A DNA stretch of 64,000 nucleotides from the NCBI GenBank assembly GCA_964396475.1, contig CAYNFE010000004.1, forward strand, positions 6,519-70,518, read 5' to 3'. Numbering within the stretch: position 1 is the first letter of the stretch; every line of letters begins with the position of its first letter. A program made the translations under genes and the position numbers. Below the pieces are notes generated by a model. That model ran no database searches. It saw nothing but the letters and a program-made list of their open reading frames with translations, and was not told the origin of the DNA. Positions 1-63,194 of the stretch are shown here, piece after piece. Source of the DNA: Candidatus Woesearchaeota archaeon. GTDB taxonomy: Archaea; Nanobdellota; Nanobdellia; Pacearchaeales; UBA284.

Positions 1-346
1 TTATGGTTTGCCATCTTCTTTACCATGGGCAATTCAGACTCTAGGAGATGTTCCAAGACATCCTACTCAAATTTATGAATCTCTATACTGCTTAGCAGGA
101 TTTTTTATTCTTCTATTATTCAAAAAACTAAGAAAAAAAGATGAATGGAGATTTAAGTCATTATTAGAAAAACAAGGAGCATTATTCTTTTCTTTCCTAA
201 TGTTCTACTCTTTCTTCAGATTCCTCAATGATTTTCTAAGGTCTTATGAACATTATTTCCTTTGCATATCCTTAAGCCAGTGGGTAGCTCTTGCTTTATT
301 CTTATTTGGTTTTGCGATGTTGAATCTAGAAAGAAAATTAATTTAA
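1..346 (+). CDS. lgt: Prolipoprotein diacylglyceryl transferase (Lgt), C-terminal fragment; the 5' end lies upstream of the window
   Basis: The frame is open from nt 2. The translation YGLPSSLPWAIQ...VPRHPTQIYESLYCLAGFFILLLF...FRFLNDFLR reproduces the Lgt signature (PWA..., RHP[ST]Q[LI]YE) and is followed by hydrophobic C-terminal helices. Confidence 0.8.
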   Translation, partial: YGLPSSLPWAIQTLGDVPRHPTQIYESLYCLAGFFILLLFKKLRKKDEWRFKSLLEKQGALFFSFLMFYSFFRFLNDFLRSYEHYFLCISLSQWVALALFLFGFAMLNLERKLI

Positions 347-360
347 AAAACTTATTTTGT

Positions 361-1584
361 TTAAATTATCTCACCCCAACCAATTAACCTCCAGTGTCCT
401 CGATAATTTCTTGCTACTCCAATTCTATCACCTTTAAAGTGCACGATTGGGATTTTCAAGGAAATTTCAACTATATCACCCTTAGCACTAGTTATAAGAC
501 CCACAGTAGTTGATGTATTAACACTAAGCAAAAGATTTTCATTTGTTTTTAATTGTTCTATTTTAATTGCTTCTTCTACTTTTGTTCCTACGATTTCTTT
601 AAACAAATTGGTTTTAATATTTATTTTATAGGTAATTTCAGGTAGCTTTCCCTTTAAACTAGCTACACATCCTGCCAAACTATCAGCCTTTGCTAATAGA
701 GGATCAAGAGAAGTTTGTATTGCCAAACTTCCAGAAGGTAGAGCCTCATCTAATTTATTTTTTCCAGCCTGAAGTCTAATAACCTTTGTTTCAATTGTAT
801 GATATTCTGTCTTATCATGCTTTTTCTTTGCTAGCCCTGGCTTAATTTCTATTACATCTCCTATCTTAAGTTTTCCTTTTTTTAGAGAGCCTCCTAAAAT
901 ACCACCAATGAGACCAGAAGGTTTGATTCCTGGTTTGTTAACATCAAAACTCCTAGCTACAAGAAACAAAGGATCTGATTTTATATCATGTTCAGGAGTT
1001 TTTAATTTTGTTATGCTTTCAAGTAAAGCAGAAATATTAATGCCTTGCTGCGCACAGATAGGAACAATTATCGCATTTTCTGCAATACCTCCTTTAATAA
1101 ATTTCTTAATTGCATCATATTGTTTTTGTGCCTCTTCCTTACTTACTAAATCAAGCTTGTTTTGAACAATTATAATTTGATTTATTCCTTTAGCTTCTAG
1201 AGCAAGCAGATGTTCTTTGGTTTGCGGCTGAGGAAAAGGTTCATTAGCAGCTATGATTAATAAAGCAGCATCTATAATAGCTGCTCCTCCTAACATCGTG
1301 GCCATCAACATCTCATGTCCAGGAGCATCAATAAAACTAACATATTTCACTTCAGAAGCCTTACCACCACATTCACAAACAACCTTAGTTATAAATTTGC
1401 CACATTTTTCGCATTTTCTTATGATAGCATCAGCATATCCTAGCTTAATTGTGATTCCTCTTTTTAATTCCTCACTATGTTTATCAGACCATACTCCAGT
1501 CAACTGATATAATAAGGTTGTCTTACCATGATCTATATGCCCGACTAATCCAATATTCAACTCTGGCTGTTTATCTTTTTCCAT
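361..1584 (-). CDS. eif2g: Translation initiation factor aIF2 gamma subunit
   Basis: GTPase motifs GHIDHGKTT, DAPGHE and NKLD, plus the aIF2-gamma zinc knuckle CEKCGK...CECGG; 407 aa is the typical length. Confidence 0.95.
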   Translation of the reverse strand: MEKDKQPELNIGLVGHIDHGKTTLLYQLTGVWSDKHSEELKRGITIKLGYADAIIRKCEKCGKFITKVVCECGGKASEVKYVSFIDAPGHEMLMATMLGGAAIIDAALLIIAANEPFPQPQTKEHLLALEAKGINQIIIVQNKLDLVSKEEAQKQYDAIKKFIKGGIAENAIIVPICAQQGINISALLESITKLKTPEHDIKSDPLFLVARSFDVNKPGIKPSGLIGGILGGSLKKGKLKIGDVIEIKPGLAKKKHDKTEYHTIETKVIRLQAGKNKLDEALPSGSLAIQTSLDPLLAKADSLAGCVASLKGKLPEITYKINIKTNLFKEIVGTKVEEAIKIEQLKTNENLLLSVNTSTTVGLITSAKGDIVEISLKIPIVHFKGDRIGVARNYRGHWRLIGWGEII

Positions 1585-1964: not shown

Positions 1965-2612
1965 CTACTTTTGAGTTGCTTTCTTTTCCTCTTTAGGTTT
2001 CTCTTCCTTAACTTCTTCCTTTGGTTTCTCGACTGGCTTTTCTTCTACTTTTAGTTTCTCTGGTTTCTTTTCCTCAGCCTGTTTTTCCTCTTTCTTAGGT
2101 TCTTCCTTCTTCTCTTCTTTTGGAATTTCTTTTTTCTCCTCTACTTTTATTTCAGGCTTAGCTTCAGGTTTTGCTTCTTCTTTCTTTTCTTCTGCTTTAA
2201 CTTCCTCTTTCTTTCTTAGAATTTCTTCAAGAGGCTTAGCTCCTTGTTTTGTTACTTTAAGATTTATTTGAGAAATACTATCATCTATAATATTACCATG
2301 AATTGCTTTTCTTATTCTGAGTCCCCTAACTGGCTTCTTTAATTTTTTCTTTTTTCTTATTTTTCTCAAACCTTTTCCTCTTGTTAATAGAACTTTTTTT
2401 CTTCCAGATCCTTCTATAAAAGCTAGAGCTGGAAATCCAGCATTATCTGTTGCTCCTGTTATTGTAAATTCATAATCTGATAGAGAAAATTCCTTAATCA
2501 TATCTCCCTTAATCACATCTCCAATTTTTTTTCCTATAAATGCTTCGCTAGCTGTTTCTATATGGAAAGTCTTCTTAGATTTTGGATCTCCTATATCTAA
2601 TTTGAATGGCAT
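1965..2612 (-). CDS. rps6e: 30S ribosomal protein S6e with a long Lys/Glu-rich C-terminal extension
   Basis: The N-terminal ~130 aa (MPFKLDIGDPKSKKTFHIE...GFPA...GLRKIRKKKK) match the S6e pattern. The last ~85 aa are low-complexity KE/P repeats. Confidence 0.85.
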   Translation of the reverse strand: MPFKLDIGDPKSKKTFHIETASEAFIGKKIGDVIKGDMIKEFSLSDYEFTITGATDNAGFPALAFIEGSGRKKVLLTRGKGLRKIRKKKKLKKPVRGLRIRKAIHGNIIDDSISQINLKVTKQGAKPLEEILRKKEEVKAEEKKEEAKPEAKPEIKVEEKKEIPKEEKKEEPKKEEKQAEEKKPEKLKVEEKPVEKPKEEVKEEKPKEEKKATQK

Positions 2613-2646: not shown

Positions 2647-4389
2647 TCATATTCCCCAAGTTGGTTTTTCCTTTCTCTTAATTTTTGCTATCTCTTGTAA
2701 GATTTTTATCTCTTCCTGACTCAAGTATTTTTTGTTCTTCTTTAGTTTACGAAATTCTTCTTCTTTAATTACTGAATATAAAATTTGATCTTCTTTTACT
2801 TGTCTATCAAAAGTTATCTTTGGTAAAGAAATAGCTAATTCCTGACCTTTCTTAGCCTCTTCAACACTTTTTGCCTCAGATTGCATAGATTTTATTCTAT
2901 CTATTTTTTCCCCTTCTTCATTCATTAAAATTAAGCCTGATTTTAAAGTGCCTGCTTCTACTCTGACACCAAAAACAGCTGGCTTGCTTTGTCTAAAACA
3001 AACATTTTTCATCACAATAATCTTGCAAGGTATTGTTAAATCTGCTAACTTCTCTCTCTCCAGTTCAATCTCTTTTTCCTTTCTCCATTTTATAAGATCT
3101 TCAGTAATTTTGTAGATAATATCAGATTCTATAATTTTAATTCTTTCATCAGCAACTATTTCAGGCTCGAGAGTAACGTTAAAACCAACTATGACTGCTT
3201 CAAGAGGACTTGTCTCAAGATTTGTTATAGCCATAGCAATATCTTGTCTTTTTATATTACCAATTTCAGCTTTCTTAACTCTGATTCCCTCTTTTCTCAG
3301 TAAAAAAAGCAAAGCCTCTAAAGAACCTAGAGATTCAGCTTTAACAACAATACCTTCTTTTTCTAAACTAAGGACTTGTTCAACTTCTTTTTGTAGAGAA
3401 TCTTTTAATTTCTCTATTTTTTCTTCTTTGGTTTCTTTTGTGGCAATGAACGGCATTCCAGGAATAATTTCTTCTGTAACTGGTAAATTTAGCCTTATGC
3501 CAGCACTAGCACCAACCTCATTAGTAGATTTAAAACCCTTTCCTAAAGGTAATGCTTGAAATAATGCTCTGATCTTTATATCAATAGCCTTGTTTAGAGT
3601 GGCTATGACAAGGATATCTTTTTTTGAAAGGATTCCATCATAAAGAATGGCCTCAATATTAATAATTCCTTTTTCTTTCTTCACTTCTAAAATTGTCCCT
3701 TTACCCTCTTTTCCTAGAACAAGTTTACCTTTGAGAAATCTTTGAGCTAAGCCTGCTAACATAACAACAAGTTCAGGAATACCCTCATAAGTTTTTCCTG
3801 AGCATGGTACTAAAGAAATTTGTTTTGTAAAATCACTAATTCTATAAAACAAATCAGAATTAAAACCTAAAGAATTGAATGTGTGAATTATTCTATATAA
3901 TTTCTTTTCAAAATCTTTCTTGGTAAAATCAGCTTGCTTCTCTATGCTTTCTTGTAGGTTTTCAGATTTTTTTGTCCAGCCTGTTATAGCATCAATCTTG
4001 TTCAAAGCAATTATGAATGGAACTTTGCTGGCCTTAAGAACCTCAATACTCTCTTTGGTCTGTTCCATTATCCCTTCATTAATATCAACAACCAAAATAG
4101 CAAGATCAGCTAATGCGCCACCCCTTTTTCTTAAGTTTGTGAAAGCAGCGTGTCCTGGTGTGTCAATGAAGAGAAAACCAGGAATTTCTACTTTGATATT
4201 ATATTTTGTAAGAAGGCTTTTACAATTTTTTTCAATTATTTCACTAGGAACCATTGTGAAAGAGATTTTCTGAGTTATTTTTCCAGCTTCTTTTTCAACA
4301 ATACATGTACCTCTGATAGAATCTAAAATTGTGGTCTTGCCGTGATCAACATGACCTGCTACAGTAACTATTGGCTGTCTGATTTTCAT
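2647..4389 (-). CDS. infB: Translation initiation factor aIF5B (IF-2 homologue)
   Basis: RQPIVTVAGHVDHGKTTILD, DTPGH and NKID GTPase motifs; 580 aa; beta-barrel domains as in aIF5B. Confidence 0.95.
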   Translation of the reverse strand: MKIRQPIVTVAGHVDHGKTTILDSIRGTCIVEKEAGKITQKISFTMVPSEIIEKNCKSLLTKYNIKVEIPGFLFIDTPGHAAFTNLRKRGGALADLAILVVDINEGIMEQTKESIEVLKASKVPFIIALNKIDAITGWTKKSENLQESIEKQADFTKKDFEKKLYRIIHTFNSLGFNSDLFYRISDFTKQISLVPCSGKTYEGIPELVVMLAGLAQRFLKGKLVLGKEGKGTILEVKKEKGIINIEAILYDGILSKKDILVIATLNKAIDIKIRALFQALPLGKGFKSTNEVGASAGIRLNLPVTEEIIPGMPFIATKETKEEKIEKLKDSLQKEVEQVLSLEKEGIVVKAESLGSLEALLFLLRKEGIRVKKAEIGNIKRQDIAMAITNLETSPLEAVIVGFNVTLEPEIVADERIKIIESDIIYKITEDLIKWRKEKEIELEREKLADLTIPCKIIVMKNVCFRQSKPAVFGVRVEAGTLKSGLILMNEEGEKIDRIKSMQSEAKSVEEAKKGQELAISLPKITFDRQVKEDQILYSVIKEEEFRKLKKNKKYLSQEEIKILQEIAKIKRKEKPTWGI

Positions 4390-16325: not shown

Positions 16326-17066
16326 ATGACAGAAAAAGCAATAAAAAAATGGTGGGAAGCACAGGCGAAAGATTTTCAAAAGAAATTTGGAGCTATTGTA
16401 GATGTTAATTATGGTCCTGGAGCTCCAAATGAAAGAAGATTGAAATTATTAGGAAATATTAAAGGAAAAGAAATTTTAGAAATAGGATGCGGTGGGGGAC
16501 AATGTACAGTTTACTTTGCCAAAAAAGGAGCTAAAGTTACAGGTGTAGATTTATCTGAAGAACAATTGAAATTCGCTAAGAAATTAGCTGATAAACATAA
16601 AGTTGATATTAAATTTATACAGGGAAGTTTTCAAAATTTAAGTAAATTTAAATCTAATAGCAAAGATATTGTATTTTCTGCTTATGCTTTACAATATTCT
16701 CCTGATTTATTGGAAGTATTCAAACAAGTTAAGAGAATTCTGAAGAAAAACGGCTTGTTTGTGTTTAGTTTTGATCATCCTATCTGGAAAATGATTAATT
16801 ATAAGACTCTAAAAGTAGAGAAGAGCTATTTTAAAATCGGAAGATATGAGGAAAAATTTTCTAGCGGAACTTTTGTAGGTTATTCTCACACTATTGAAGA
16901 CACCTATGACAAACTTGTAAAAGCAAATCTGTTTGTAGAAAGAATTATAGAACCTGATTCAAGAAAAAGATATCCTGGGGATACACTATATAATGTTTGG
17001 GATTATAAAGCTAAAACTTTGAAAATGGTTCCTCCAACAATCATCTTTAAATGCAGAAAAAAATGA
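16326..17066 (+). CDS. Class I SAM-dependent methyltransferase
   Basis: Motif I ILEIGCGGGQCTVYFAKKGAKVTGVDLS. The start is moved to the ATG at 16326 (MTEKAIKKWW) because the track start overlaps the upstream gene. Confidence 0.85.
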   Translation: MTEKAIKKWWEAQAKDFQKKFGAIVDVNYGPGAPNERRLKLLGNIKGKEILEIGCGGGQCTVYFAKKGAKVTGVDLSEEQLKFAKKLADKHKVDIKFIQGSFQNLSKFKSNSKDIVFSAYALQYSPDLLEVFKQVKRILKKNGLFVFSFDHPIWKMINYKTLKVEKSYFKIGRYEEKFSSGTFVGYSHTIEDTYDKLVKANLFVERIIEPDSRKRYPGDTLYNVWDYKAKTLKMVPPTIIFKCRKK

Positions 17067-18367
17067 AAATAAATCAAATCCTAGAAGAAGTAAGTAAGAA
17101 AATTACTCCATCACAGAAAGAAAAGCTTGCCTTAGATGAAAATCTCTTGGAATTTGAAAGAAAATTAAGACCTAAACTGAAAAAATATAAAGCTAAATTA
17201 TTTGTAGGAGGCAGTCTAGCAAAACAAACACTTATAAAAAGAGATACAAAATATGATATTGACATATTTATTATGTTTAATTATCAGAAATATAAAAATA
17301 AAAGCAAGGAACTATCAAAATATCTCTCAAGCATTCTAAAATCAGCAAAATTAAAATATATTTTACTTAAAGGTTCTAGAGATTATTTTCAATGTAATTT
17401 TAAAGGCCTGCGTATTGAACTTATTCCCATTCTTGAAATTAAAAAACCATCTCAAGCTCTTAATATTACTGATATTTCCCCTCTTCATGTAATTTATATT
17501 TTAAATCAGATAAAAAAGAAAAAGAAAATTGCTAATGAGATAAGAATTGCTAAAGCTTTTTGTTATGGAACTGATTGTTATGGAGCTGAATCCTATATCA
17601 AGGGCTTTTCTGGCTATGTTTTAGAAGTTTTAGTTTCTTATTATGGTTCTTTCTTAAAATTTGTAAAGGCAGCTTCTAGATGGAAAATTCCTACAAAAAC
17701 AGAGAATAGGATAGTTATAGATCCAAGAAGGTATTATAAGAGTAAAAACAAAATTTTCAAAGAATTAAATGAGGCTAAGCTAAAATCTCCTTTAATTTTG
17801 ATTGATCCTGTACAAAAAGAAAGAAATGCTGCAGCAGCTCTAAACTTCAAGACTTTTATTAGATTTATCAAAGCATGTAAAGATTTTCTTGCAAAACCTT
17901 CTGAGAAATTTTTCTTTAGGGAAGCTTTTGATATTAATGCTTGGAAAAAGAAAGCAAAAAAACAGAAAGCAAAATTAGTTATTCTAAAAACTATAAGTAC
18001 AAAAAAGAAAAAAGATATTGCTGGAGCCAAACTAAAGAAATTCTATGAGTTTCTCTTTTTTTATATGAAAAAAAATGGCTTTAAAGTTCTTAGTGGAGAA
18101 TTTGACTTTGATGAGAAGACAATACAATCTAAATTTTATTTTATTTTGAAAGAGCCTTCTAAAATTTATATTATAGCTGGCCCTCCTATTGATATTGATG
18201 TTAAATATATCAAAGCATTTAAGAAAAAATGGAAAGGAGCTTTTGTTAAGAAAAGAAGACTTTATGTTAAAGCAAAGAGAAAAATTTCTAATGTTAAACA
18301 GCTTGTTAAAATCATATCTAAAGCTCAGTTAAAGGAAATGGGTATTAAAGAAATAAAATTAGTATAA
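17051..18367 (+). CDS. cca: CCA-adding tRNA nucleotidyltransferase, archaeal class I
   Basis: Pol-beta nucleotidyltransferase motif GGSLAKQTLIKRDTKYDIDIFIMF and a length of 438 aa typical of the archaeal CCA enzyme. The ATG at 17063 is an alternative start. Confidence 0.75.
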   Translation: MQKKMKINQILEEVSKKITPSQKEKLALDENLLEFERKLRPKLKKYKAKLFVGGSLAKQTLIKRDTKYDIDIFIMFNYQKYKNKSKELSKYLSSILKSAKLKYILLKGSRDYFQCNFKGLRIELIPILEIKKPSQALNITDISPLHVIYILNQIKKKKKIANEIRIAKAFCYGTDCYGAESYIKGFSGYVLEVLVSYYGSFLKFVKAASRWKIPTKTENRIVIDPRRYYKSKNKIFKELNEAKLKSPLILIDPVQKERNAAAALNFKTFIRFIKACKDFLAKPSEKFFFREAFDINAWKKKAKKQKAKLVILKTISTKKKKDIAGAKLKKFYEFLFFYMKKNGFKVLSGEFDFDEKTIQSKFYFILKEPSKIYIIAGPPIDIDVKYIKAFKKKWKGAFVKKRRLYVKAKRKISNVKQLVKIISKAQLKEMGIKEIKLV

Positions 18368-20116
18368 AGTTTTGTGCAATTCTTTGAGATATTTTATTTG
18401 TTCTTTTTTTAATTTTCTGAACTGCCACTTATTGAGATTAAGAATATTTTCTGTGGCCTGTTCTGCACTTATTATTAAGGGTGTTATAACATAATCTGCT
18501 CCTAATTTATACATTTCAAGGGCATCATCAATTCTCTGAGCTGTTACTGCTACAAAAACCTTAGGAAGAAGTTTTTTGAAATATTTTATTACAAGTATAT
18601 TATCTTCTTTTTTTGGAGCTGTTGAAATTACTATTCTAAGCTTTGCAAGAGGAAGATGATTGAAAATTTCTGTATTACCAATATCACCATACATAGATGA
18701 TATCTGTTTTTTTTGCAGAGCATTAATTATTTCTGGATTAAAATCAACAACAAGAATCTTATGCTTTAATCTTTCCAACTTTTTTATAAAAACAGAACCC
18801 ATCCTATGAGCACCTATCAATAAAATAGTTTTCTTTTTCTGGAATTTATATTTTGTTTTCTCTTTCTTTGTTGGAATCTTTTCAATAATCTTAATTGCTC
18901 CTATGGATTTTGAATACAAAGCTAAACTGCCTCTGATTAAATAAGGTGTCAGAGCCATTGTAATTATAGCTACTAAAACAACCATATTGAATGTCTCTTG
19001 CGCTAATACTCCTAAAATCAATCCTTGAAGTGCTAGAATAAGAGAGAATTCAGAAATCTGTGCTAAACTAAAACCTGTCAAAGCACTAGTTCTTGCTGTA
19101 TAGCCAGCAATTCTCACAAATAAAGCTGTCAGGAAAGGTTTGATTATTAAAACTAAAGCCAAAAGAATTACAAAAGGAACAATTACCTTTATCACATTAA
19201 AGGATGTAAGTAACATTCCTAATGAGACAAAAAATATTATTGCAAAAAAGTCTCTTAAAGGGCGAATTTTAGATACGATTTCTGTCTTATAATGAAGATT
19301 AGCTAGAGCCAATCCTCCAATAAATGCTCCTATAATAATTGAGAGTCCTAGAACATAACTTATAGCAGAAAACAAGAAGACAAAAGCAAGAGAGATTATG
19401 AATAAGAGTTCTGTTGATCTCGAAGCAAAATTGAATAATGGTTTTATTATGGTTTTATTCAAGAAAAATGCTATCAATAATAATAAAGTAACTTTTAGTA
19501 ATGCTAGGTAGACAAAAATATGTGTGAATTTGCCTGATAAAATAGCCAATGCAAAAATAGCCACTATATCTTGAATCAATAAAATGCTTATAGCTATTCT
19601 AGCGTGTAAGGTGTTTAGCTCATATTTATCTGCAAAAAGTTTTATTACAAGAATAGTTGAACTTAGAGAGATGATTATGGCAAGATAAAAAGCTTCCAGC
19701 ATCCCAAATCCAAGATATGTTGTGATGAAGAATGTTGCCACACCTATAATGATTATCTGGAAGAAACCAGCAAGCAGAGAACCTATAGATGTTTCTTTTA
19801 ATTTTTTTAGTGATATTTCCATACCTGCCACGAACAATAAGAAAGCTATACCTATCTCTGCCAAGGCTGAAATTAAAACAGTATTTTTAACTAAACCCAA
19901 AACAAGAGGACCGATGACTAAACCAGCCAAGATATAAGCTGGGATTATTTCTTGTTTTAAAAGTTTAAGAATCAATGCAAGTATAGCTGCTATAATAATT
20001 ACTATACTGGTATTAATTAGAATAGCTTGTGTCTCTGGAACATTAGATAAAATGCTTCCTAAAGATGATACACCTTGAAATAGTATATTAGTAATTTCTT
20101 CTAAAGCCATCCTCAC
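18359..20116 (-). CDS. Cation:proton antiporter (CPA2/Kef-type) with C-terminal RCK/TrkA-N domain
   Basis: About 400 aa of TM helices followed by a Rossmann-like ILLIGAHRMGSVFIKKL...VVDFN segment. Confidence 0.85.
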   Translation of the reverse strand: MRMALEEITNILFQGVSSLGSILSNVPETQAILINTSIVIIIAAILALILKLLKQEIIPAYILAGLVIGPLVLGLVKNTVLISALAEIGIAFLLFVAGMEISLKKLKETSIGSLLAGFFQIIIIGVATFFITTYLGFGMLEAFYLAIIISLSSTILVIKLFADKYELNTLHARIAISILLIQDIVAIFALAILSGKFTHIFVYLALLKVTLLLLIAFFLNKTIIKPLFNFASRSTELLFIISLAFVFLFSAISYVLGLSIIIGAFIGGLALANLHYKTEIVSKIRPLRDFFAIIFFVSLGMLLTSFNVIKVIVPFVILLALVLIIKPFLTALFVRIAGYTARTSALTGFSLAQISEFSLILALQGLILGVLAQETFNMVVLVAIITMALTPYLIRGSLALYSKSIGAIKIIEKIPTKKEKTKYKFQKKKTILLIGAHRMGSVFIKKLERLKHKILVVDFNPEIINALQKKQISSMYGDIGNTEIFNHLPLAKLRIVISTAPKKEDNILVIKYFKKLLPKVFVAVTAQRIDDALEMYKLGADYVITPLIISAEQATENILNLNKWQFRKLKKEQIKYLKELHKTLY

Positions 20117-20219
20117 CTCTTTTTAATTTTATTTCTTTTATATACATATTTAAAAAGAAAATGATATAAAAATATTTGCATTGAGTTAAATTTTTAATGT
20201 CTTTTTTCTCTATCTAGCT

Positions 20220-24749: not shown

Positions 24750-24772
24750 AATGAAAAAGAGGAAAGGTAAGA
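24748..24772 (+). repeat. 25-bp direct repeat, copy 2
   Basis: Identical to 22884..22908; it spans the heparinase-like stop codon and the GGDEF start codon. Confidence 0.85.
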
Positions 24773-25392
24773 AAGAAGAAAGGTATGTTAAATTAGATGA
24801 GATAAGTAAACAAATTAAGAGTGAAATAAAAAAGCCAAAACCAGAAGTTCGAGCTCTTGGAAGACTTTTTAATGAGCTCTATTCATATGCAACAAGAGAT
24901 CATCTAACTGGTGTATTCAACAGAAGAATTCTTGATGAATTACTTGGTAGAGAGATGGAAAAATCAATAAGACAGGGATTGCCTCTAGCTGTTATAATGC
25001 TTGACATTGATAATTTTAAACAATATAATGATACATATGGTCATTTACAAGGAGACATGGCTCTTAGAGCTATAACAAAAACAATTCAAAGATTAACGAG
25101 AAAAGAAGATTTTGTTGCGAGATATGGAGGAGAAGAATTCATTATTGTACTTCCAAACACGAAACTGAAAAAAGCAAGAGAAATAGCTGAAAGAATAAGA
25201 AAAAAGATTACAGAAACAAAAATAAAAGCAATAAGTAAAAGGATTGAAAAAGGATTTGAAAAAATTACAGTAAGCATGGGCATATCTAAATTAACAGAAG
25301 CAGGAATACAATATATGTTAGATCAGGCTGATATTGCTCTATACAAAGCAAAAGAAAAAGGCAAGAATCAAGTTGTTATGATTAATGATTAA
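24751..25392 (+). CDS. GGDEF domain diguanylate cyclase (stand-alone, with a short N-terminal helix)
   Basis: RDHLTGVFNRR, the active-site variant RYGGEEF, an RKED I-site exactly 5 residues upstream of it, and a C-terminal ALYKAKEKGKNQV. The start is placed at the ATG at 24751 rather than the TTG at 24742. Confidence 0.9.
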   Translation: MKKRKGKKEERYVKLDEISKQIKSEIKKPKPEVRALGRLFNELYSYATRDHLTGVFNRRILDELLGREMEKSIRQGLPLAVIMLDIDNFKQYNDTYGHLQGDMALRAITKTIQRLTRKEDFVARYGGEEFIIVLPNTKLKKAREIAERIRKKITETKIKAISKRIEKGFEKITVSMGISKLTEAGIQYMLDQADIALYKAKEKGKNQVVMIND

Positions 25393-26509: not shown

Positions 26510-26950
26510 ATGAAATGTCCGTATTGCTCTGGAAATACAAAAGTTTTGGATAAAAGAGATACAGAAGAAGTAACTAGACGAAGGCGCGAGTGTTTAAAAT
26601 GCAAAAAAAGATTTACTACATATGAAAGGATAAAGACAAACATAAGAGTAATTAAGAAAGATGAAAGAAGAGAGCCTTTTGATAGAGAAAAGTTATTGAT
26701 GGGAATAATGAGGGCTTGCGAGAAACGCCCTGTCAGCCAGGAAACTATTGAAAAAACTGTTACTGAAATAGAAACAAAGATGAGAGGTTATGGTCCTGAA
26801 GTTCCAACTAAGATTATTGGAGAATTAGTTATGAAAAAATTAAAGAAGATTGATAATGTGGCTTATGTTAGATTTGCTTCTGTATATCGTGAATTTGAAG
26901 ACATCGGTGATTTCAAGAAAACACTGAAAGAGCTTGGAAAAAGGAAATAG
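26510..26950 (+). CDS. nrdR: Transcriptional repressor NrdR (zinc ribbon + ATP-cone)
   Basis: MKCPYCSGNTKVLDKRDTEE...RRRRECLKCKKRFTTYE zinc ribbon followed by an ATP-cone (VIKKDERREPFDREKL...AYVRFASVYREF). The track's 33-codon N-terminal extension is rejected. Confidence 0.9.
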   Translation: MKCPYCSGNTKVLDKRDTEEVTRRRRECLKCKKRFTTYERIKTNIRVIKKDERREPFDREKLLMGIMRACEKRPVSQETIEKTVTEIETKMRGYGPEVPTKIIGELVMKKLKKIDNVAYVRFASVYREFEDIGDFKKTLKELGKRK

Positions 26951-26990
26951 AAATAATACATAGAAAAATTAAGAGGTGAGGGATGAAAAA

Positions 26991-29732
26991 ATGGAGACAC
27001 TTATGGAAAATCCAAGATTATATGAAACTTACGATAAAACTAAGACAAAAAAGCTAGAAGAAAGACTCCTAGGTTTAGATGTTCAGGCTGATTTTACACC
27101 AAACGCAATTTCAGTATTAGCAAAAAGATATCTCAGAAAAGATGAATGGGGTGTTCCTCAAGAAGATGTCAAAGGTTTGTTTGCAAGAGTCGCAGCAAAT
27201 ATGGCTTATCCTGATCTTCATTATACAAGTAGTGAAGAAAAAACTTATGAGACAGCCAAGAAATTCTATGAAATGATGGTTAATAAGGAATTTATGCCTA
27301 ATTCTCCGACATTGATGAATGCAGGAAGAAAAATGCAACAGCTTTCAGCATGCTTTGTCTTGCCTGTAAAAGATAATATGGAAAGTATATTTGGTCAGGT
27401 CTATAATACTGCAATGATTCATAAAAGCGGTGGAGGAACAGGATTTTCATTTTCAAAAGTAAGAAGAAAAAATGATTTTGTTTCTACAACATATGGAAAA
27501 GCATCAGGCCCAGTCAGCTTTATTATAGCTTATGATTCTGCAACACATGCTGTGAATCAGGGAGGTTTTAGAAGAGGAGCAAACATGGGTATTTTAAGAG
27601 TAGATCATCCAGATATTCTAGAATTTATACATGCTAAGGAGAATGAAAGAGATAGGAGATTTGAAAATTTTAATTTTTCAGTTGGTGTAACAGACGCTTT
27701 CATGGAAGCTGTTAAAAATGGAGAACACTACACTCTAAAAAATCCTAGAAAAGACAAATTCTATGATTTTACAATGAAGGATATAAAAAGAGATGAAGAA
27801 AGTATGAAACAGGGATTAATAACCAAAAATGAAAGAGTTTTGATCGTTGAAGATAGTGATGTCATATATCAAAACCCTATAGAGATGGATATAAGAGGAA
27901 GAATAACAAAAGTTAAAACAAAAAAAGTTGGAAAAGTTGATGAAAAAGGAAGAATAACACTAGATGCTAGACTTGTTTTTGATGAAATTGCTAATCTAGC
28001 TTGGAGAAATGGAGAGCCAGGAATCATTTTTCTAGATGAAATTAATAGATATAATCAAACCCCAAAAATAGGAAAAATAGAAGCAACTAATCCTTGTGGT
28101 GAACAACCATTACTACCATATGAGGCTTGCAATCTTGGCTCAATTAATTTAGGATTATTGGTTAAAAACGGAAAAGTTGATTATAAAAAATTAGGAGAGA
28201 CTGTTAAAAAAGCAGTACATTTTTTAGATAATGTAGTAGATATGAGTAATTTTTATATGCCTCTACCAAAAGAAAGATATGAAGACATCACACGCTGTAT
28301 ACAAAAACTTCTCAAAGAACAAGGAATTGAAAAAAAATATAAAGATTTAGAAAAAATAGTAAGAACTGATTTAAGAGGACCTATAGAGGGAATGGTGCAT
28401 GGAAATAGAAAAATTGGTCTTGGTGTTATGGGTTGGACAGATATGTTGACTCAATTAAAAATCCCTTATAGTTCTGAGGAAGCTGTTGAAAAAGCAGAAG
28501 AAGTAATGAAATTTGTGCAGGAAACAGCTGAGGAAAAATCAGAAGAATTAGCAGAAGAAAGAGGGGCTTTTCCAAATTTTGATAAAAGTATCTATGCAGA
28601 GAATGGAAATAAGCCAAGAAGAAATGCTACATGCACAACAATAGCCCCAACAGGCTCTATATCAATCATAAGCGGAGCATCTTCAGGAATTGAACCTTTA
28701 TTTGGTATAGTTTATACTCATACAGATGCTGATAACAAAACCAGGGAATTTAGAAATGAATTTTTAGAAAGAGACCTAGGAGAAAATGGAATAGATCCAG
28801 ATAGGGTTCTTTCAGAGCTTGTTAAAGGAAAAAGTTTGCAAGAATTAGATTTTGTTCCTGATCATATAAAGAAAGTTTATGTCACTTTCAGAGATGTTCC
28901 TGTAGAATATCACGTGAAAATGCAGGCAGCATTCCAGAAATACACACATAATGCAGTAAGCAAGACAACAAACATGCCAAATTCTGCTACAGTAGAAGAC
29001 GTAAAAGAAGTATATCAACTATCACATAAGCTTGGTTGTAAAGGAATAACTCTTTATAGAGATGGCAGCAGACAAAAGCAAGTCATAAAAGAAAAAAAAG
29101 TAGAAAAAGTAGAAGATAAAAAAGAAAACCATCTTGAAAAAATGCTTAATCTAGAATTGCCAGGTCGTATAGTAAAATATAAATCACTCCCTGGAGAAAC
29201 ATATGAAATGAATACAGGATGTGGAAAACTTTTTGTCACTGTAAATCATGATCCAAAAACAGGAAAACTCCTTGAAGTTTTCCAGAACATGAACCCTCCA
29301 GGTGGTTGTGGAAATGCACAGACCGCTGCTCAAGGTATTCTTACTTCTATTTACTTACAACAAGGAGGAAATACTAAAAAAATCTATAAACTTCTGTCCG
29401 GAACAACATGTCCAAAACAATTTGGTTTAGGACCAAGTAAAATAAGTTCTTGCCCAGATGCAATGATCCAAGCAATGCAATATCATGAACAAAGAATCGC
29501 TAATGGAGAATTTCCAATGGGAGATTCAGTAAATTCAAAACCAAAACAAGAAAAACAAAAAACAAATGAAAATCCTGGAACAAAAAAAGAAAAAGCTCCT
29601 GAAATAAATTCTAGTCATATTAATAAAGTAGATCAACGCTGTCCAGAATGTGGTGCTTCTTTAGATTTTGCTGAAGGATGTATGGGTGGAACATGCACTA
29701 ATCCTTCTTGTGGCTGGTCTTCTTGTGGTTAA
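26991..29732 (+). CDS. nrdJ: Ribonucleoside-triphosphate/diphosphate reductase, class II (adenosylcobalamin-dependent), with C-terminal Cys-rich zinc ribbon
   Basis: [23 protein letters not shown] active-site finger loop, TIAPTGSIS, and a C-terminal CPECG...[12 protein letters not shown]. The ATG at 26991 lies downstream of AAGAGGTGAGG, and the track's GTG at 26976 overlaps this SD-like motif. Confidence 0.9.
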
Positions 29733-29811: not shown

Positions 29812-31425
29812 ATGCCTATCAAAAATAAACTTAAAATTGAATTAGCTGGTTTCTGGCCAAAGATAGAGATAAAAGACAAAAGATTAAGAAAGAAAATTGG
29901 CAAGGATTTCTTAGGGCCAGATTATATAGTTAGTTTTCTCCAGAAAGCTGTTTACAAATCAGTGCCTTTAATAAAAGGATTAGAAGAAGAAATACTGAAA
30001 GAAGAAAATATAAGAGAGACAGCATTCAATAAATTTTCAAGTTCTATGCTAAGAGGTCACTCTCTTGACGGCACTGCAGGAATTGCTTTAAAATTACATG
30101 GAAGCAAACTTCTTGATTCTGCTCTTACAGGAATACCATTTTCAAGAAGTTTTGTGACTAGTGGAAGAAGAGCGAAAATACATAAAGAAAACATAATAAT
30201 TCCAGACTCTATTGATAAAAAATATGATCTTAGAAAAGAATATGTAGAGACATCAGAAACAGCTATAGAAATTTATGATAAAATAATTGATAAAATTGGA
30301 AGCAAACAATTAGCTTCCAAAGTTGTTCCTTATAATAATCCATGTGATCTCTATATAAGGTTGCCTTTAAGTTCTATCATGACTCTTGCTCTTGAATTAG
30401 AACAGCAAAAACAAACTAATCAGATATGGATGCCAAGAGAAGTGGAAGAATTAATATCAAGATTAGAAAATGATATACTGCCTGATATAGATATGAAAAT
30501 AATGTATGATACAAGAAAAGCTGCTCTTCGTGATACTTATCTTCATTGGTATGTATTCAAAGGTAAAGATGATAATTTTGCAACAGAAATGGCAAAATTA
30601 TTGGGAAATCCTCTTGAACCAACAATAATACCAACTTCAATAAACATACAACCAACTAAGGGCTTGAGAAAGAAATTAAAATATCTAGAAGAAAAAATAA
30701 GTTTCACACACACTATTTTAAATCCTAAAGAATTATCAAAAGCTTCCAGAGAAAACTTGTTGTTGTTAAGAGATATAGTTGATTCTTATAACGATTCTAT
30801 CTCATTAAAAACAGTAAGTAGTTTATCATGGCGCGTTTGGAGTGAGCAAAAAAGACATTCAACTTTAAGACAGTGCGTAGAGTCAATATATAGAGCAAGT
30901 GACAGAGCATATGAAATCATAGAATCATCTAGAAATAAAAAAGATCTTTTCAAGAGATCAGAAAAAGCTTTTGTTATTCCACCAGAAATAAAAAAAGATA
31001 AAGAGCTTCTCAGAGATTATGTATGGATATCTTCAAAACAACACCTATTAAGAAAAGAACTTCTTGATGCTAGTATAGAAGAAAGAGATGCTATCTATAT
31101 TGTTCCAAGAAATACTAGATTAAGGACAGTAGAGACGTATGATTTGATAAACCTAATTGATTTGGAACTTCCATTAAGAACTTGCACAACTTGTGAGCCT
31201 GAAAGACGAGCAACTGCAGAAAAGAAAGCAGAAATTATAAAAGACACCTTAAGTGGTATTATCCCAGAGCTCAATTATTTAATAGGCCCAAAATGCATTC
31301 TTGGTTATTGCACAGAGCCAAAATTCTGCGGAAAAATCCTAGAATACAATCCAGATTACAGTGTATCTTTGCATAATCATATAAGAGAAAATCTGATAAA
31401 GAAGGCTTCAGAAAAAATAAGTTAA
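29812..31425 (+). CDS. Hypothetical protein; possible divergent tandem ThyX-like (flavin-dependent thymidylate synthase fold) protein
   Basis: Residues 345-360 (EQKRHSTLRQCVESIY, nt 30844-30891) resemble the ThyX motif RHRxxSxxxxSxRY. IVPRNTRLRTVETYDLINLIDLELPLR resembles the ThyX helix block. The N-terminal half carries a degenerate copy (RGHSLDGTAGIALKLHG...SGRR). Confidence 0.35.
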   Translation: MPIKNKLKIELAGFWPKIEIKDKRLRKKIGKDFLGPDYIVSFLQKAVYKSVPLIKGLEEEILKEENIRETAFNKFSSSMLRGHSLDGTAGIALKLHGSKLLDSALTGIPFSRSFVTSGRRAKIHKENIIIPDSIDKKYDLRKEYVETSETAIEIYDKIIDKIGSKQLASKVVPYNNPCDLYIRLPLSSIMTLALELEQQKQTNQIWMPREVEELISRLENDILPDIDMKIMYDTRKAALRDTYLHWYVFKGKDDNFATEMAKLLGNPLEPTIIPTSINIQPTKGLRKKLKYLEEKISFTHTILNPKELSKASRENLLLLRDIVDSYNDSISLKTVSSLSWRVWSEQKRHSTLRQCVESIYRASDRAYEIIESSRNKKDLFKRSEKAFVIPPEIKKDKELLRDYVWISSKQHLLRKELLDASIEERDAIYIVPRNTRLRTVETYDLINLIDLELPLRTCTTCEPERRATAEKKAEIIKDTLSGIIPELNYLIGPKCILGYCTEPKFCGKILEYNPDYSVSLHNHIRENLIKKASEKIS

Positions 31426-35599: not shown

Positions 35600-35715
35600 G
35601 GGCCTGTGGTCTAGTGGTTAGGACGCAACCCTCACAATCAGAACCTGCGGTTCCGATACTTCCCAAGTTCTGACGGGAACGGTTGAGATCCTCGGTTCAA
35701 TTCCGAGCAGGCCCA
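35600..35715 (+). tRNA. tRNA-Val (anticodon CAC) with a ~43-nt intron at the canonical 37/38 position
   Basis: Hand fold: acceptor GGGCCTG/CAGGCCC, D arm GTCT-AGTGGTTA-GGAC, anticodon stem CAACC/GGTTG with loop CTCACA..., T arm CTCGG-TTCAATT-CCGAG, discriminator A. No CCA is encoded. The intron (~35637..35679) contains an internal 7-bp helix TCAGAAC/GTTCTGA. Confidence 0.85.
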
Positions 35716-43008: not shown

Positions 43009-43827
43009 ATGATTCGAGTAAAAGATAAAAAACTTTATTCTTTGATTAAAGAATTAATAAGAATAATCGCTGGCAAGAATTCTGAGCCTATAGTAGATAT
43101 TCTTTTTCAGAAGAAGAATGTTAATGAATTTAAAATAGCTGATAAACTTGGCATAACAATAAATCAGGCCCGTAATATTATATACAAGCTTTCTAAATTT
43201 AATATATTAGATTCTATAAGAAAAAAAGACAAACGCCGTGGCTGGTATACTTATTTTTGGACTTTAAACAATATTAAAGCCTTACATACTCTTTTCAGAC
43301 TGAAAAAGAGAGAAATTCAATTAATGATACAAATTCTAAAAAACAGAAAAATGAAAAATTTCTATATATGCTCTGCTGATAACATAGAAATGAGCGAGGA
43401 AACAGCCATGCATTATGCTTTCTTATGCCCAGAATGTGGAGAACTACTTCAACCAGTACCAAGAGAAAGAAAAATCAAGGAAATATCAACAAGAATAGAA
43501 CAGATAAGAAGACAATTAAATGCTATAAAATTAGAACTTGAAAGAATAACCCCAAAACCAAAATTAAAGGTTAAGAAGAAAAAAAGAAAAATTAAGAAGA
43601 AAAAGAAGAAAAAACCAAAGAAGAAAATACAAAAGAAAAAACTTAGAAAAATTCTGAAAATAGTGAGAAAGAAAAAGAAAGTCAAAAAGAAAAAAAAGCG
43701 TAAAAAGAAACCTAAAAGAAAGAAAATTAAGAAAAAGAAAACTAAAGCTAAAGTCAAGAAGAAAAAAGTTAAGAAAAAACCCAAGAAGATTAAGAAGAAG
43801 AAAATCAAAAAGAAAAGAAAGAGATAA
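43009..43827 (+). CDS. tfe: Transcription factor E (TFE/TFIIE-alpha homologue) with ~90-aa poly-lysine C-terminal tail
   Basis: N-terminal winged helix (EPIVDILFQKKNVNEFKIADKLGITINQARNIIYKLSKFNILDS..RRGWYTYFWTLN), a partial zinc ribbon (CPECGELL), then K/R-rich low complexity from ~nt 43555. Confidence 0.7.
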   Translation: MIRVKDKKLYSLIKELIRIIAGKNSEPIVDILFQKKNVNEFKIADKLGITINQARNIIYKLSKFNILDSIRKKDKRRGWYTYFWTLNNIKALHTLFRLKKREIQLMIQILKNRKMKNFYICSADNIEMSEETAMHYAFLCPECGELLQPVPRERKIKEISTRIEQIRRQLNAIKLELERITPKPKLKVKKKKRKIKKKKKKKPKKKIQKKKLRKILKIVRKKKKVKKKKKRKKKPKRKKIKKKKTKAKVKKKKVKKKPKKIKKKKIKKKRKR

Positions 43828-44894: not shown

Positions 44895-45497
44895 ATGCCA
44901 AAGAAAACAAAAAAAGTTAAAAAAGTTAAAAAAACAAAGGTTAAGAAATCAAACCTTAAAATTCAGAACATAGTAGCTACAACTTCTCTTTATACAAAAG
45001 TGCCATTAGTGAAACTAGTAAGAAGTCAGTCAAATACAGAGTATAATCCAGAACAATTTCCAGGATTAGTTCTAAGAATCAAAAAACCAAAATCTGCTGT
45101 TCTAGTCTTTAGTTCAGGTAATTTAGTCTGTACAGGAACTAAAAGTATCAAGCAAGTAGAGGAAGTTATCAAACAAGTTATAAAGCAACTGAGAAAAATA
45201 GGAGTTAAAGTTAAAGAAAAACCAAGGATAAATGTTCAGAATATAGTGGCTAGTGGTTCTATAAATATAAAAATTAATTTAAACGAACTTGCTCTAAAAC
45301 TTGAAAACACAGAGTATGAGCCAGAGCAATTTCCAGGTCTTGTCTATAAATTAGACGAGCCTAATGCGACATTCCTCTTGTTCAGTAATGGCAAACTTGT
45401 CTGTACTGGAACAAAAAATAGAAGACAATTAGATGAGGCAATGAAAAAACTGATAAAGAACACTAGAGAAGTGTTAAAGCCAAGGAAATTAAGATAA
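44895..45497 (+). CDS. tbp: TATA-box binding protein with a Lys-rich N-terminal extension
   Basis: Two TBP repeats, each with IQNIVA... and EY[NE]PEQFPGLV...LVCTGTK. The N-terminus is MPKKTKKVKKVKKTKVKK. Confidence 0.9.
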   Translation: MPKKTKKVKKVKKTKVKKSNLKIQNIVATTSLYTKVPLVKLVRSQSNTEYNPEQFPGLVLRIKKPKSAVLVFSSGNLVCTGTKSIKQVEEVIKQVIKQLRKIGVKVKEKPRINVQNIVASGSINIKINLNELALKLENTEYEPEQFPGLVYKLDEPNATFLLFSNGKLVCTGTKNRRQLDEAMKKLIKNTREVLKPRKLR

Positions 45498-47697: not shown

Positions 47698-48462
47698 ATG
47701 AATGGTGATATCAAAAGACATACAGCATATAAAATCTCCATAGGTTTAATAGCTAAGGGAGATTTAAAGCTAGAGCCAGATAAAAATGACCCTACGAGAG
47801 AAAAATTTCGTTTTCTCACTTTGAAAGACAAAGAAATTAATAGAGTCAACCTCATAGCTAATGTCATAGATAAGTTCAAGTCAGATGAAAAAAATTATGC
47901 CTCTCTGACTGTAGATGATGGAACAGGTCAGGTTAGAGTCAGGGCTTTCTCAGATAATACTAAAATGATAGAGAATAATGCACCAGGAGATACTCTATTA
48001 ATCATAGGAAACTTGAGATATTTTAATAAAGAAATTTACATATTGCCAGAGATAGTAAAACTTTTAGATGCAAGGTGGCTTTTAGCCCGCAAATTAGAAT
48101 TAGAAAAAGAATATGGTGATATGTACAAAAGTCTAGAACAATTACAACCACCAAAAGCTGAACCTAAACCAACTCCCCAGCCAACACCAGAATCTCTAAG
48201 AAAACCAGAAACACCAAAAGAACCAGTCATAGAAAAACCAAAAATAGAAAAAGAAAAAATTGAGACGGCAATTGAGTTAAGCTTAAGAGAACAAATAATT
48301 CAAACTATAAAAGAAGCAGAAAATGATGAAGGAATAGATATAGACAAAATAATAATGAAATTAGACAAATATAAAGTAGAAGAAATCAATAATACAGTAA
48401 CAATCTTACTAGAAGAGGGTTCCATCTATGAACCTAAACCCAGTAGATTAAGAATTCTATAA
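47698..48462 (+). CDS. RPA-like OB-fold ssDNA-binding protein with C-terminal winged helix
   Basis: OB-fold pattern VNLIANVIDKF...ASLTVDDGTGQVRVRAF, a Pro/Lys-rich linker, and a C-terminal wH-like ...DKIIMKLDKYKVEEINNTVTILLEEGSIYEP. Immediately downstream of mcm. Confidence 0.6.
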   Translation: MNGDIKRHTAYKISIGLIAKGDLKLEPDKNDPTREKFRFLTLKDKEINRVNLIANVIDKFKSDEKNYASLTVDDGTGQVRVRAFSDNTKMIENNAPGDTLLIIGNLRYFNKEIYILPEIVKLLDARWLLARKLELEKEYGDMYKSLEQLQPPKAEPKPTPQPTPESLRKPETPKEPVIEKPKIEKEKIETAIELSLREQIIQTIKEAENDEGIDIDKIIMKLDKYKVEEINNTVTILLEEGSIYEPKPSRLRIL

Positions 48463-62672: not shown

Positions 62673-63194
62673 ATGAAATCTTCTTACAGTTATATAAGAA
62701 AAACCTGGAAAAATCCTAAAAAAAATATGGGTAAGGCTTATAGAGAAAAATTGATTGATTGGAGAAAAAGTAATGTTGTTGTTAGATTAGATAAACCAAC
62801 AAGATTAGACAGAGCTAGAGCATTAGGATACAAAGCAAAAGTAGGTTTTGTTATTGCTAGAATCAGAATAAGAAGAGGTGGCAGAAAAAGGCCTAAGCCC
62901 AAAGGAGGAAGAAGGAGCAAAAGACAAACTATTAGAAAAACCCTTAAAATGAATTATAGATGGGTAGCTGAACAAAGATGCCAAAAAAAATTTCCTAATC
63001 TTGAAGTTTTAAATTCATACTGGATAGGCAAGGATGGAATTAATTATTTTTATGAAGTAATTCTCGTGGATCCAAGCAGGCCAGAGATAAAAAAAGATAA
63101 AAATATCAAATGGATTATAAGCAAGAAACAAAGAAAAAGAGTTTTGAGAGGATTAACAAGTGCAGGAAAAAAATCTCGTGGCTTAAGAAAATAA
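62673..63194 (+). CDS. rpl15e: 50S ribosomal protein L15e
   Basis: SYSYIRKTWKNPKK...RLDRARALGYKAK.G...RIRIRRGGRKRP is the L15e signature. Confidence 0.9.
   Translation: MKSSYSYIRKTWKNPKKNMGKAYREKLIDWRKSNVVVRLDKPTRLDRARALGYKAKVGFVIARIRIRRGGRKRPKPKGGRRSKRQTIRKTLKMNYRWVAEQRCQKKFPNLEVLNSYWIGKDGINYFYEVILVDPSRPEIKKDKNIKWIISKKQRKRVLRGLTSAGKKSRGLRK

Follow-up and report, generated by a model that had tools for sequence, protein, structure and literature searches.

The 64,000-nucleotide stretch of contig CAYNFE010000004.1 analysed here (the window) carries a stand-alone GGDEF gene that is probably a genuine, vertically inherited diguanylate cyclase gene of the Pacearchaeota, archaea of the DPANN group. 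Judged by its residues, it would be an entirely typical GGDEF cyclase with an I-site, and the unusual part is its archaeal host. The existence of archaeal GGDEF open reading frames (ORFs) is not new, because GenBank annotates them (UZE94132.1) and Braun et al. 2021 reported more than 300 archaeal GGDEF BLAST matches, a large share of which came from Asgard and DPANN (PMC8646023). What is added here, on sequence grounds, is that the gene belongs to a true archaeal family kept by selection, with an archaeal-type promoter element, a recurrent though not universal link to Ca2+/cation transporters and, in the window genome, an intact HD-GYP partner.

Residues and fold of the GGDEF protein

In the protein, a Lys-rich tail and two predicted N-terminal helices (5-26 and 33-48) precede the GGDEF domain, which spans residues 47-207 and on which Pfam PF00990 aligns over its whole length (model positions 1-161 of 161, E 2.5e-48, 164.3 bits against a cut-off of 23.8), and NCBIfam TIGR00254 scores 174.2 bits on the protein (cut-off 37.4). 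An alternative in-frame TTG start lies at 24742, and the orthologues start with MKKRKGKK at the ATG. The motif stretch reads ...TRKEDFVARYGGEEF... and holds the I-site motif RKED and the A-site motif GGEEF, separated by the five residues FVARY. An earlier note on this DNA had read an active RYGGEEF variant with RKED five residues upstream; both the sequence and the coordinates proved correct, and chance is far from explaining the match.

The residues were mapped onto the true PleD sequence (from the PDB), numbered from its RAID (359-362) and GGEEF (368-372). PleD D327 and D329 correspond to D85 and D87 of the window protein, K332 to K90, N335 to N93, H340 to H98, D344 to D102, R366 to R124, K442 to K201 and R446 to K205, the I-site R359xxD362 to R117KED120 and its partner Arg R390 to R148, and all the catalytic, Mg2+-binding and guanine-binding residues of PleD have equivalents. 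In PleD, D327, E370 and E371 are the acidic residues of catalysis and Mg2+ binding, N335 and D344 contact the guanine, and K332, K442 and R446 contact phosphate. Across an alignment of 52 members of the archaeal-type GGDEF family, GGEEF and the catalytic and guanine-specificity residues were invariant (52/52), RxxD of the I-site was present in 49 members and the position of R148 was Arg or Lys in 48, whereas the position of PleD R446 was Lys in 42 and Arg in nine. The domain appears fit for catalysis and its I-site is intact, and the earlier suggestion of an apparently active cyclase of this kind is supported by the residue mapping and the family invariance. The protein is probably a functional archaeal diguanylate cyclase.

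The position of PleD D344 is a selectivity position that, according to Hallberg et al., is reportedly Ser in the Hypr GGDEFs that make cyclic GMP-AMP (cGAMP). A Ser or Thr was not found there in any of the 52 members, all of which have the Asp equivalent to Asp102; as the selectivity residue is Asp, cyclic diguanosine monophosphate (c-di-GMP) is the expected product. An altered, Hypr-like base specificity through a variable Gly nine residues past the Asn of DxLTGxxNRR was considered and rejected, the residues N335 and D344 being placed in FKxxND and GHxxGD, which are invariant.

The closest PDB sequences were the Marinobacter GGDEF protein 3IGN and WspR (E ~1e-34, 35-44% identity). The AlphaFold2 model has a predicted local distance difference test score (pLDDT) of 83 and matches GGDEF structures in Foldseek with target-normalised template modelling (TM) scores of 0.8-0.88; the pLDDT of its N-terminal helices is 51-75. 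No sensor or dimerisation domain was found in the 213 residues. The second predicted helix (33-48) continues into the GGDEF domain, appears in the model to align with the zipper of GCN4-WspR (3I5C) and the coiled coil of DgcB (6TTR), and carries a hydrophobic seam conserved in the family alignment (L36, F40, L43, Y44 and A47). We infer that this helix mediates the dimerisation needed for GGDEF catalysis.

The protein shares with PleD (Caulobacter), WspR (Pseudomonas) and 3IGN the full GGDEF fold, GGEEF, the Mg2+ ligands, N335/D344, R366, K442 and RxxD/R390. It differs from them in having no REC or other sensor domain and only a basic two-helix N-terminus of ~45 residues, as well as in its archaeal host, a BRE/TATA-like element upstream and the Lys at the position of PleD R446. 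Among coiled-coil or stalk cyclases (3I5C, Caulobacter DgcB 6TTR and the Thermotoga TM1788 GGDEF 4URG) a parallel helix pair joins two GGDEF domains, and the predicted archaeal helix aligns with their zipper or stalk; in the archaeal protein, however, such pairing is putative, the N-terminal helices are modelled at modest confidence and a KPKP break splits them. According to the literature, the sole GGDEF/HD-GYP protein accepted earlier from a finished archaeal genome is RCIX2274 (CAJ37382) of the methanogen Methanocella arvoryzae. Compared by description, that protein is a single large REC-PAS-PocR-GGDEF-HD-GYP fusion, whereas in the DPANN lineage of the window GGDEF and HD-GYP are separate small genes, with the GGDEF gene in an orthologous clade of several species.

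Archaeal context and inheritance of the gene

The contig is archaeal. Archaeal marker genes lie on both sides of the GGDEF gene within the window (Table 1), and the G+C content (GC) is uniform at 26-35%, about 30%. A 116-nucleotide (nt) tRNA presumably carries an intron of ~45 nt, typical of archaea. The earlier note had reckoned with the prospect of a contig that was not archaeal, or of a gene absent from close genomes and decaying; instead, archaeal informational genes flank the gene on both sides and ~54 orthologues were found, with a ratio of nonsynonymous to synonymous substitution rates (dN/dS) of ~0.14.

These ~54 further short proteins (194-266 amino acids), retrieved by protein search, share 50-91% identity with the window protein, and several are named Candidatus Pacearchaeota (e.g. 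UZE94132.1); the search also returned the window's own protein, carried by an NCBI contig of 85 kb. Below the orthologues the scores fall to bacterial REC-GGDEF and GAF-GGDEF proteins at ~45% identity. A scan of GTDB genomes with the GGDEF protein gave 79 bacterial loci (36-50%) and one Pacearchaeota locus, and was dominated by generic GGDEF motifs. Phylogenetic placement, which the earlier note had proposed, set the archaeal-type proteins apart: in a neighbour-joining tree the 54 archaeal-type sequences formed one clade against 64 bacterial top matches, and the mean Kimura distance was 0.97 between the two groups and 0.54 within.

The gene is under strong purifying selection pressure, with a dN/dS of 0.138 against a 90%-identical orthologue (dS 0.42) and of 0.153 against a 79%-identical one (dS 0.82), both dS values being unsaturated. 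Across the orthologues the GC of the gene follows that of the host locus (0.30-0.44), and its identity between genomes parallels that of the neighbouring housekeeping genes. Taken together, conservation, dN/dS, GC and this tracking of identity suggest that the gene was acquired from Bacteria long ago and has since been passed on vertically, and they argue against contamination, recent transfer or decay. In independent assemblies the syntenic locus adjoins aIF2-gamma, S6e, thermosome and TFIIS genes.

The statement in the earlier note that c-di-GMP signalling has not been demonstrated in Archaea agrees with the literature (PMC10249747; PMC5847659; preprint 10.1101/2021.11.05.467447). A 2023 review describes c-di-GMP as undetected in any archaeon and diguanylate cyclases as almost exclusively bacterial (PMC10249747). 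Galperin et al. considered that other archaeal GGDEF/HD-GYP cases might be contamination (PMC5847659), and Galperin and Chou found 70 archaeal HD-GYP ORFs, all but one from metagenome-assembled genomes (MAGs), which they treated as potential bacterial contamination for future studies to decide (preprint 10.1101/2021.11.05.467447). Where archaeal contigs carry GGDEF proteins, these "need to be confirmed" according to Romling 2022 (PMC10086821), and a study of groundwater goes no further than counting the cyclase genes of ultra-small MAGs (PMC9938205). No published analysis of this Pacearchaeota GGDEF clade, its synteny or its HD-GYP partner was found in the literature. For one lineage the contamination question is settled, because the genes stand among archaeal core genes, are syntenic in independent assemblies and are under purifying selection.

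Gene neighbourhood and promoter-like element

Synteny was compared across 12 lineages including the window, the relatives (labelled L001 and so on) being read from 10-kb flanks with precomputed Pfam annotation. With (-) marking the reverse strand, the order in the window is Kef(-) / P-ATPase / heparinase-like / GGDEF / CaCA / NrdR / ribonucleotide reductase (RNR), and in the 91%-identical relative L001 (CP061211.1, 710,724 bp, Pacearchaeota) it is Kef(-) / small ORF / P-ATPase / GGDEF / CaCA / ORF(-) / NrdR / NrdD, with gaps of 8 nt before and 2 nt after the GGDEF gene. L091 has Kef(-) / P-ATPase / GGDEF / CaCA / NrdR / RNR, L003 has Kef(-) / P-ATPase / GGDEF / GT2 / CaCA / methyltransferase / NrdR / NrdD, L011 has P-ATPase / GGDEF / NrdR, and L005 and L092 have Kef(-) / GGDEF / NrdR / RNR. 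The order aIF5B, S6e, aIF2-gamma, Lgt(-) / GGDEF / CaCA / NrdD ... thermosome was found in L007 (a 692-kb contig) and L009, and HD-GYP(-) / aIF5B / S6e / aIF2-gamma / Lgt(-) / GGDEF / NrdD in L099. The contexts of L094 (AlaRS(-) / GGDEF / RIO kinase / S15, archaeal) and L093 (domain of life unassigned) are unrelated.

The most constant neighbour is NrdR and/or RNR, one to three genes downstream of GGDEF in 10 of the 12 lineages, followed by CaCA (6/12), Kef (6/12; the conserved upstream neighbour in L001, L003, L005, L091 and L092) and the P-ATPase (5/12). NrdR is mainly known from Bacteria. The reductase next to it varies, being of the Ribonuc_red_lgC type and not NrdD in the window, L091 and L005 (9368-12319), with anaerobic NrdD and its activase instead in L001 (15238-17298), L003, L092, L007, L009 and L099; the NrdD of L001/L002 (L002 4351-8502) holds an intein/LAGLIDADG insertion.

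The ATPase scored best with the NCBIfam PMR1-type (678 bits) and SERCA-type Ca-ATPase (636 bits) models, both below the equivalog cut-offs, and with the motifs PEGL, SSNLAE and NLVSDG it is probably a Ca2+ pump. The CaCA exchanger scored 160.6 bits with TIGR00367, slightly under the cut-off of 179.65, and has two TSLPE alpha-repeat motifs; it starts 46 nt past the GGDEF gene. The two genes are also adjacent in L001, L009 (1-nt gap), L091 and L007, with one gene between them in L003. The earlier note had placed the cyclase between the ATPase and the exchanger, and the coordinates stand, but in the window a heparinase-like gene separates the cyclase from the ATPase, whereas the two are immediate neighbours in L001, L091, L003 and L011. 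The heparinase-like gene, of the polysaccharide lyase family, whose stop codon lies 1 nt before the GGDEF ATG and whose product has no obvious signal peptide, is missing at this position in those four relatives and is a lineage-specific insertion. Together with the GT2 gene on the other side of GGDEF in L003, it hints at glycan-related cargo.

A 14-mer upstream of the ATPase (Table 1) is conserved in six lineages, always ahead of the first ATG past the divergent Kef gene. One exact copy each stands 21 nt before the ATPase ATG in L001 (7312-7325), L003 (5310-5323) and L091 (5317-5330), and 21 nt before the GGDEF ATG in L005 and L092 (7966-7979), where the ATPase is absent. It is made up of GTTAAA followed by TTTTTAAT, with the TATA-like part at about -29 to -22, and other lineages have similar AAAGTTTTT(A/T) elements ~30 nt upstream of GGDEF. 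This composition and position match the archaeal promoter of a leaderless transcript, made of a transcription factor B recognition element (BRE) and a TATA box, and the 14-mer looks like such an element. As the promoter element is shared, co-transcription of GGDEF with the ATPase is implied, and in the window lineage the ATPase, GGDEF and CaCA genes would be transcribed together from the 14-mer.

Table 1. Features of the window and their coordinates
Feature	Position	Strand	Remarks
Lgt homologue (prolipoprotein diacylglyceryl transferase), bacterial-type	8-346	+	runs off window start
aIF2-gamma	361-1584		archaeal marker
S6e	1965-2612		archaeal marker
aIF5B	2647-4389		archaeal marker
HD-GYP phosphodiesterase gene (putative), 465 aa	4443..5840	+	adjoins aIF5B; Pfam HD_5 PF13487, E 7e-36
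CCA-adding enzyme, archaeal (class I)	17051-18367		archaeal marker
CPA2/Kef-type cation:proton antiporter with RCK (TrkA_N)	18359..20116	-	divergent; Pfam Na_H_Exchanger + TrkA_N
BRE/TATA-like 14-mer GTTAAATTTTTAAT	20185..20198	+	21 nt before ATPase ATG; single exact copy in window
P2-type cation ATPase, 881 aa	20220..22865	+	first gene of unit; Pfam Cation_ATPase_N, E1-E2, Cation_ATPase_C
Heparinase II/III-like protein, 601 aa	22944..24749	+	Pfam Hepar_II_III_C, E 5e-10
GGDEF diguanylate cyclase gene (putative), stand-alone, 213 aa	24751..25392	+	ATG 24751, TAA 25392
I-site motif RKED, residues 117-120	25099..25110	+	read directly
A-site motif GGEEF, residues 126-130	25126..25140	+	read directly; R124-Y125 precede
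CaCA-family (YrbG/NCX_Mj-like) Ca2+/Na+ exchanger, 318 aa	25439..26395	+	Pfam Na_Ca_ex, two repeats, E 3e-46
NrdR repressor	26510-26950	+	Pfam Zn_ribbon_NrdR + ATP-cone
Ribonucleotide reductase	26976-29732	+	Pfam Ribonuc_red_lgC + TSCPD
537-aa protein	29812-31425	+	ThyX (Thy1) match on residues 381-478 only
Three Pfam-unmatched conserved ORFs, 262-314 aa	32041-34691	-	
tRNA, 116 nt	35600-35715	+	Rfam match; missed by bacterial-mode ARAGORN
Two Pfam-unmatched conserved ORFs, 375 and 128 aa	39663-41173	-	
TFE-alpha	43009-43827		archaeal marker
TBP	44895-45497		archaeal marker
MCM with archaeal winged helix	45650-47650		archaeal marker
RPA	47698-48462		archaeal marker
STAS + HATPase_c_2 (RsbW/SpoIIAB-like kinase) fusion	50937-51908	-	
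MltB/SLT_2-like lytic murein transglycosylase	61028-62098	+	
L15e	62673-63194		archaeal marker

Among the other genes of the window, the MltB-like enzyme, kept in the relative L097 (188-1336, reverse strand), could act on bacterial peptidoglycan and bears on the lifestyle of the organism. The Lgt homologue of the first positions lies directly upstream of GGDEF in L007 (7188-7967), L009 (7107-7925) and L099 (5391-6188, reverse strand), and is a further gene of bacterial type that has become fixed in these archaea. The STAS and kinase fusion is a bacterial partner-switching module in an archaeon without sigma factors. The 537-residue protein is kept in L005 and L091, and unannotated ORFs of ~300 amino acids occur at similar downstream positions in L001, L003, L005 and L092.

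HD-GYP partner, alternative readings and a possible circuit

The window also holds an intact HD-GYP gene that the earlier note did not mention. The motifs of its C-terminal domain read LHDVGK ... HHHERYDGKGYP, and the HD dyad, HHExxDGxGYP and the metal-ligand His/Asp are all present; H300, H336, D337, H365, H389-E391, D394, G395, G397-P399 and D418 are invariant in four full-length homologues. The best PDB sequence match was V-cGAP3 (5Z7C, 2.9e-38), along with PmGH (4MCW, 6e-29) and PA4781 (4R8Z), and the AlphaFold2 model (pLDDT 84) reaches target-normalised TM scores of 0.77-0.80 to the HD-GYP structures PA4781 (4R8Z) and DvhD (9RBZ). The window protein has the same fold as PmGH, PA4781, DvhD and V-cGAP3 and the same motifs (HD, HHExxDGxGYP and a downstream Asp); it differs from them in an N-terminal domain of ~285 residues, without a Pfam match and of very narrow distribution. 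Among 5.8 billion protein clusters, no more than six proteins carried that domain, on contigs that were archaeal or unassignably short, and a metagenome scan with its profile gave one locus (L100). Its fold has only weak GAF-like Foldseek matches (E > 0.1), with residues 156-210 at low confidence.

Archaeal contigs carry full-length homologues. In L097 the gene order, aIF5B(-) / HD-GYP / AI-2E / ..., repeats that of the window. The neighbours in L095, a contig that shares its sample of origin with the GGDEF contig L091, are L11, prefoldin, SepF, Alba and S17e genes, and the homologue of L100 (an 859-kb contig) stands next to split RpoA'/A'' and split RpoB genes. In L099 (393-1659, reverse strand) the orthologue lies 4.6 kb from GGDEF as two ORFs, with a frameshift, an internal deletion of ~50 codons and a stop codon, and is either a pseudogene or an assembly error. 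Read from these genes, the HD-GYP protein is genuine but patchy, and the window genome has genes for what appear to be both synthesis and degradation.

Several points weigh against a working archaeal cyclase and pathway. The Lys at the position of PleD R446 is a caveat, which we regard as a conservative change. The bootstrap for the whole archaeal clade is weak, at 73/200 in a simple neighbour-joining tree. The HD-GYP gene is patchy, with just four full-length homologues found, is missing from the syntenic position in L007 and L009, and has no close orthologue for CP061211.1 in the match list of the protein search. c-di-GMP was not detected in Haloferax or Sulfolobus, the two archaea studied to date, neither of which is DPANN (PMC8646023). 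Pfam scans of the 72 window ORFs found no PilZ, MshEN, EAL or second GGDEF domain and Rfam found no c-di-GMP riboswitch in the window even at E<=1, which confirms the earlier observation that no PilZ or other receptor is visible there; nor were receptor domains found in the precomputed Pfam annotation of the relatives' flanks. The absence of PilZ is weak evidence, because many bacteria with c-di-GMP enzymes also have no recognisable receptors (PMC12448109). Finally, CaCA in six and the ATPase in five of the 12 lineages mean that the Ca2+ link may be positional.

Contamination, which the literature suspects by default for such matches, is hardly credible as the origin of the GGDEF and HD-GYP genes, whether as bacterial DNA in a chimeric assembly or through mis-binning, and this explanation is effectively already refuted. 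Galperin and colleagues do treat such ORFs from archaeal MAGs as potential contamination (PMC5847659; preprint 10.1101/2021.11.05.467447), and the nearest relatives outside the clade are the bacterial REC-GGDEF and GAF-GGDEF proteins; yet bacterial proteins never exceed ~50% identity, the gene lies between archaeal informational genes at uniform GC with an archaeal-type promoter element, its GC is ameliorated to each host, and the same gene order comes from independent NCBI, JGI, ENA and Logan assemblies of different samples. The Ca2+ neighbourhood is a more balanced matter. Of the link between Ca2+ and the cyclase drawn in the earlier note, the adjacency to the transporters held up as real and recurrent, whereas it is not universal, and a functional link is only suggestive. 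There is about an even chance that GGDEF simply fills a slot kept between Kef and NrdR/RNR in a compact genome, around which uncoupled transporters were inserted or lost. L005 and L092 have this slot with neither ATPase nor CaCA, L099 has GGDEF followed by NrdD, the contexts of L093 and L094 are unrelated, NrdR/RNR is the commonest neighbour, other unrelated genes (heparinase-like, GT2, methyltransferase) were also inserted in the block, and co-directional neighbours in compact DPANN genomes need not be functionally linked. On the other hand, the adjacency of GGDEF and CaCA outlasts upstream rearrangement in L007 and L009, where Lgt replaces Kef and the ATPase, the gaps in L001 and L009 are 1-2 nt, and the shared promoter element implies co-transcription with the ATPase.

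A different product, 3',3'-cGAMP or c-di-AMP as in the Hypr GGDEFs, with the RCK-bearing Kef antiporter as a c-di-AMP-style target, is very unlikely. The best PDB match of the HD-GYP protein, V-cGAP3, is a cGAMP-specific phosphodiesterase, the Kef/RCK antiporter is a conserved divergent neighbour and bacterial RCK_C domains bind c-di-AMP (PMC10249747), but the c-di-GMP phosphodiesterases PmGH and PA4781 also match the HD-GYP protein strongly, the Pfam scan reported TrkA_N only and no RCK_C (TrkA_C) match for Kef, and Asp102 (52/52) and N93 are invariant. Somewhat less improbable, though still unlikely, is an active cyclase with no intracellular archaeal pathway, whose c-di-GMP would be exported to a bacterial partner or host or which would be an orphan with no dedicated receptor. 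DPANN archaea are thought to be episymbionts, the genome has bacteria-directed genes (the MltB-like transglycosylase and the Lgt homologue), HD-GYP is missing from most relatives and no receptor domain was found in the ~64-kb window and the annotated flanks of relatives. However, this search covered only a fraction of the genome and the missing PilZ weighs little, no exporter is specifically linked to the GGDEF gene, and the strong purifying selection and conserved I-site residues argue for tuned intracellular levels.

The analysis shows that the domain is intact, that its context is archaeal, that the gene is conserved, syntenic and under purifying selection, and that the promoter-like element is shared. 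In the proposed mechanism, two copies of the 213-residue protein would pair by way of the N-terminal helices preceding the GGDEF domain, each active site would bind one GTP with Mg2+ through D85/D87, K90, N93, D102, R124, E128/E129, K201 and K205, and the paired protein would make c-di-GMP, which at the RKED/R148 I-site would cap the output. As the protein has no sensor domain, control is expected from three sources, namely transcription from the conserved BRE/TATA-like promoter shared with the P-type ATPase and CaCA genes, product inhibition and, in the window genome, degradation by the HD-GYP protein, whose N-terminal domain would supply the signal input. The gene neighbourhood leads us to hypothesise a role in cation (Ca2+) homeostasis or in cell-surface/attachment functions. 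Tentatively, and with rather more doubt than attaches to the cyclase gene, Pacearchaeota might run a minimal archaeal c-di-GMP circuit in which a sensor-less, product-inhibited cyclase co-transcribed with Ca2+/cation transporter genes, an HD-GYP protein with a rare sensor domain and a new receptor class control cation homeostasis or host attachment. In a still bolder version, a bacterial partner would receive the c-di-GMP and have its biofilm programme manipulated by it.

The locus offers simple reagents, a putative soluble cyclase of 213 and a putative phosphodiesterase of 465 amino acids, in a proteome small enough to be screened for receptors (an estimated 750 genes from a ~700-kb genome), and makes archaeal c-di-GMP signalling cleanly testable. 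Should the enzyme prove active, such signalling extends beyond Bacteria, and new types of receptor could come to light in a very small genome. The proposed circuit, if true, would give the domain Archaea its first system of c-di-GMP signalling and open a way to those receptors.

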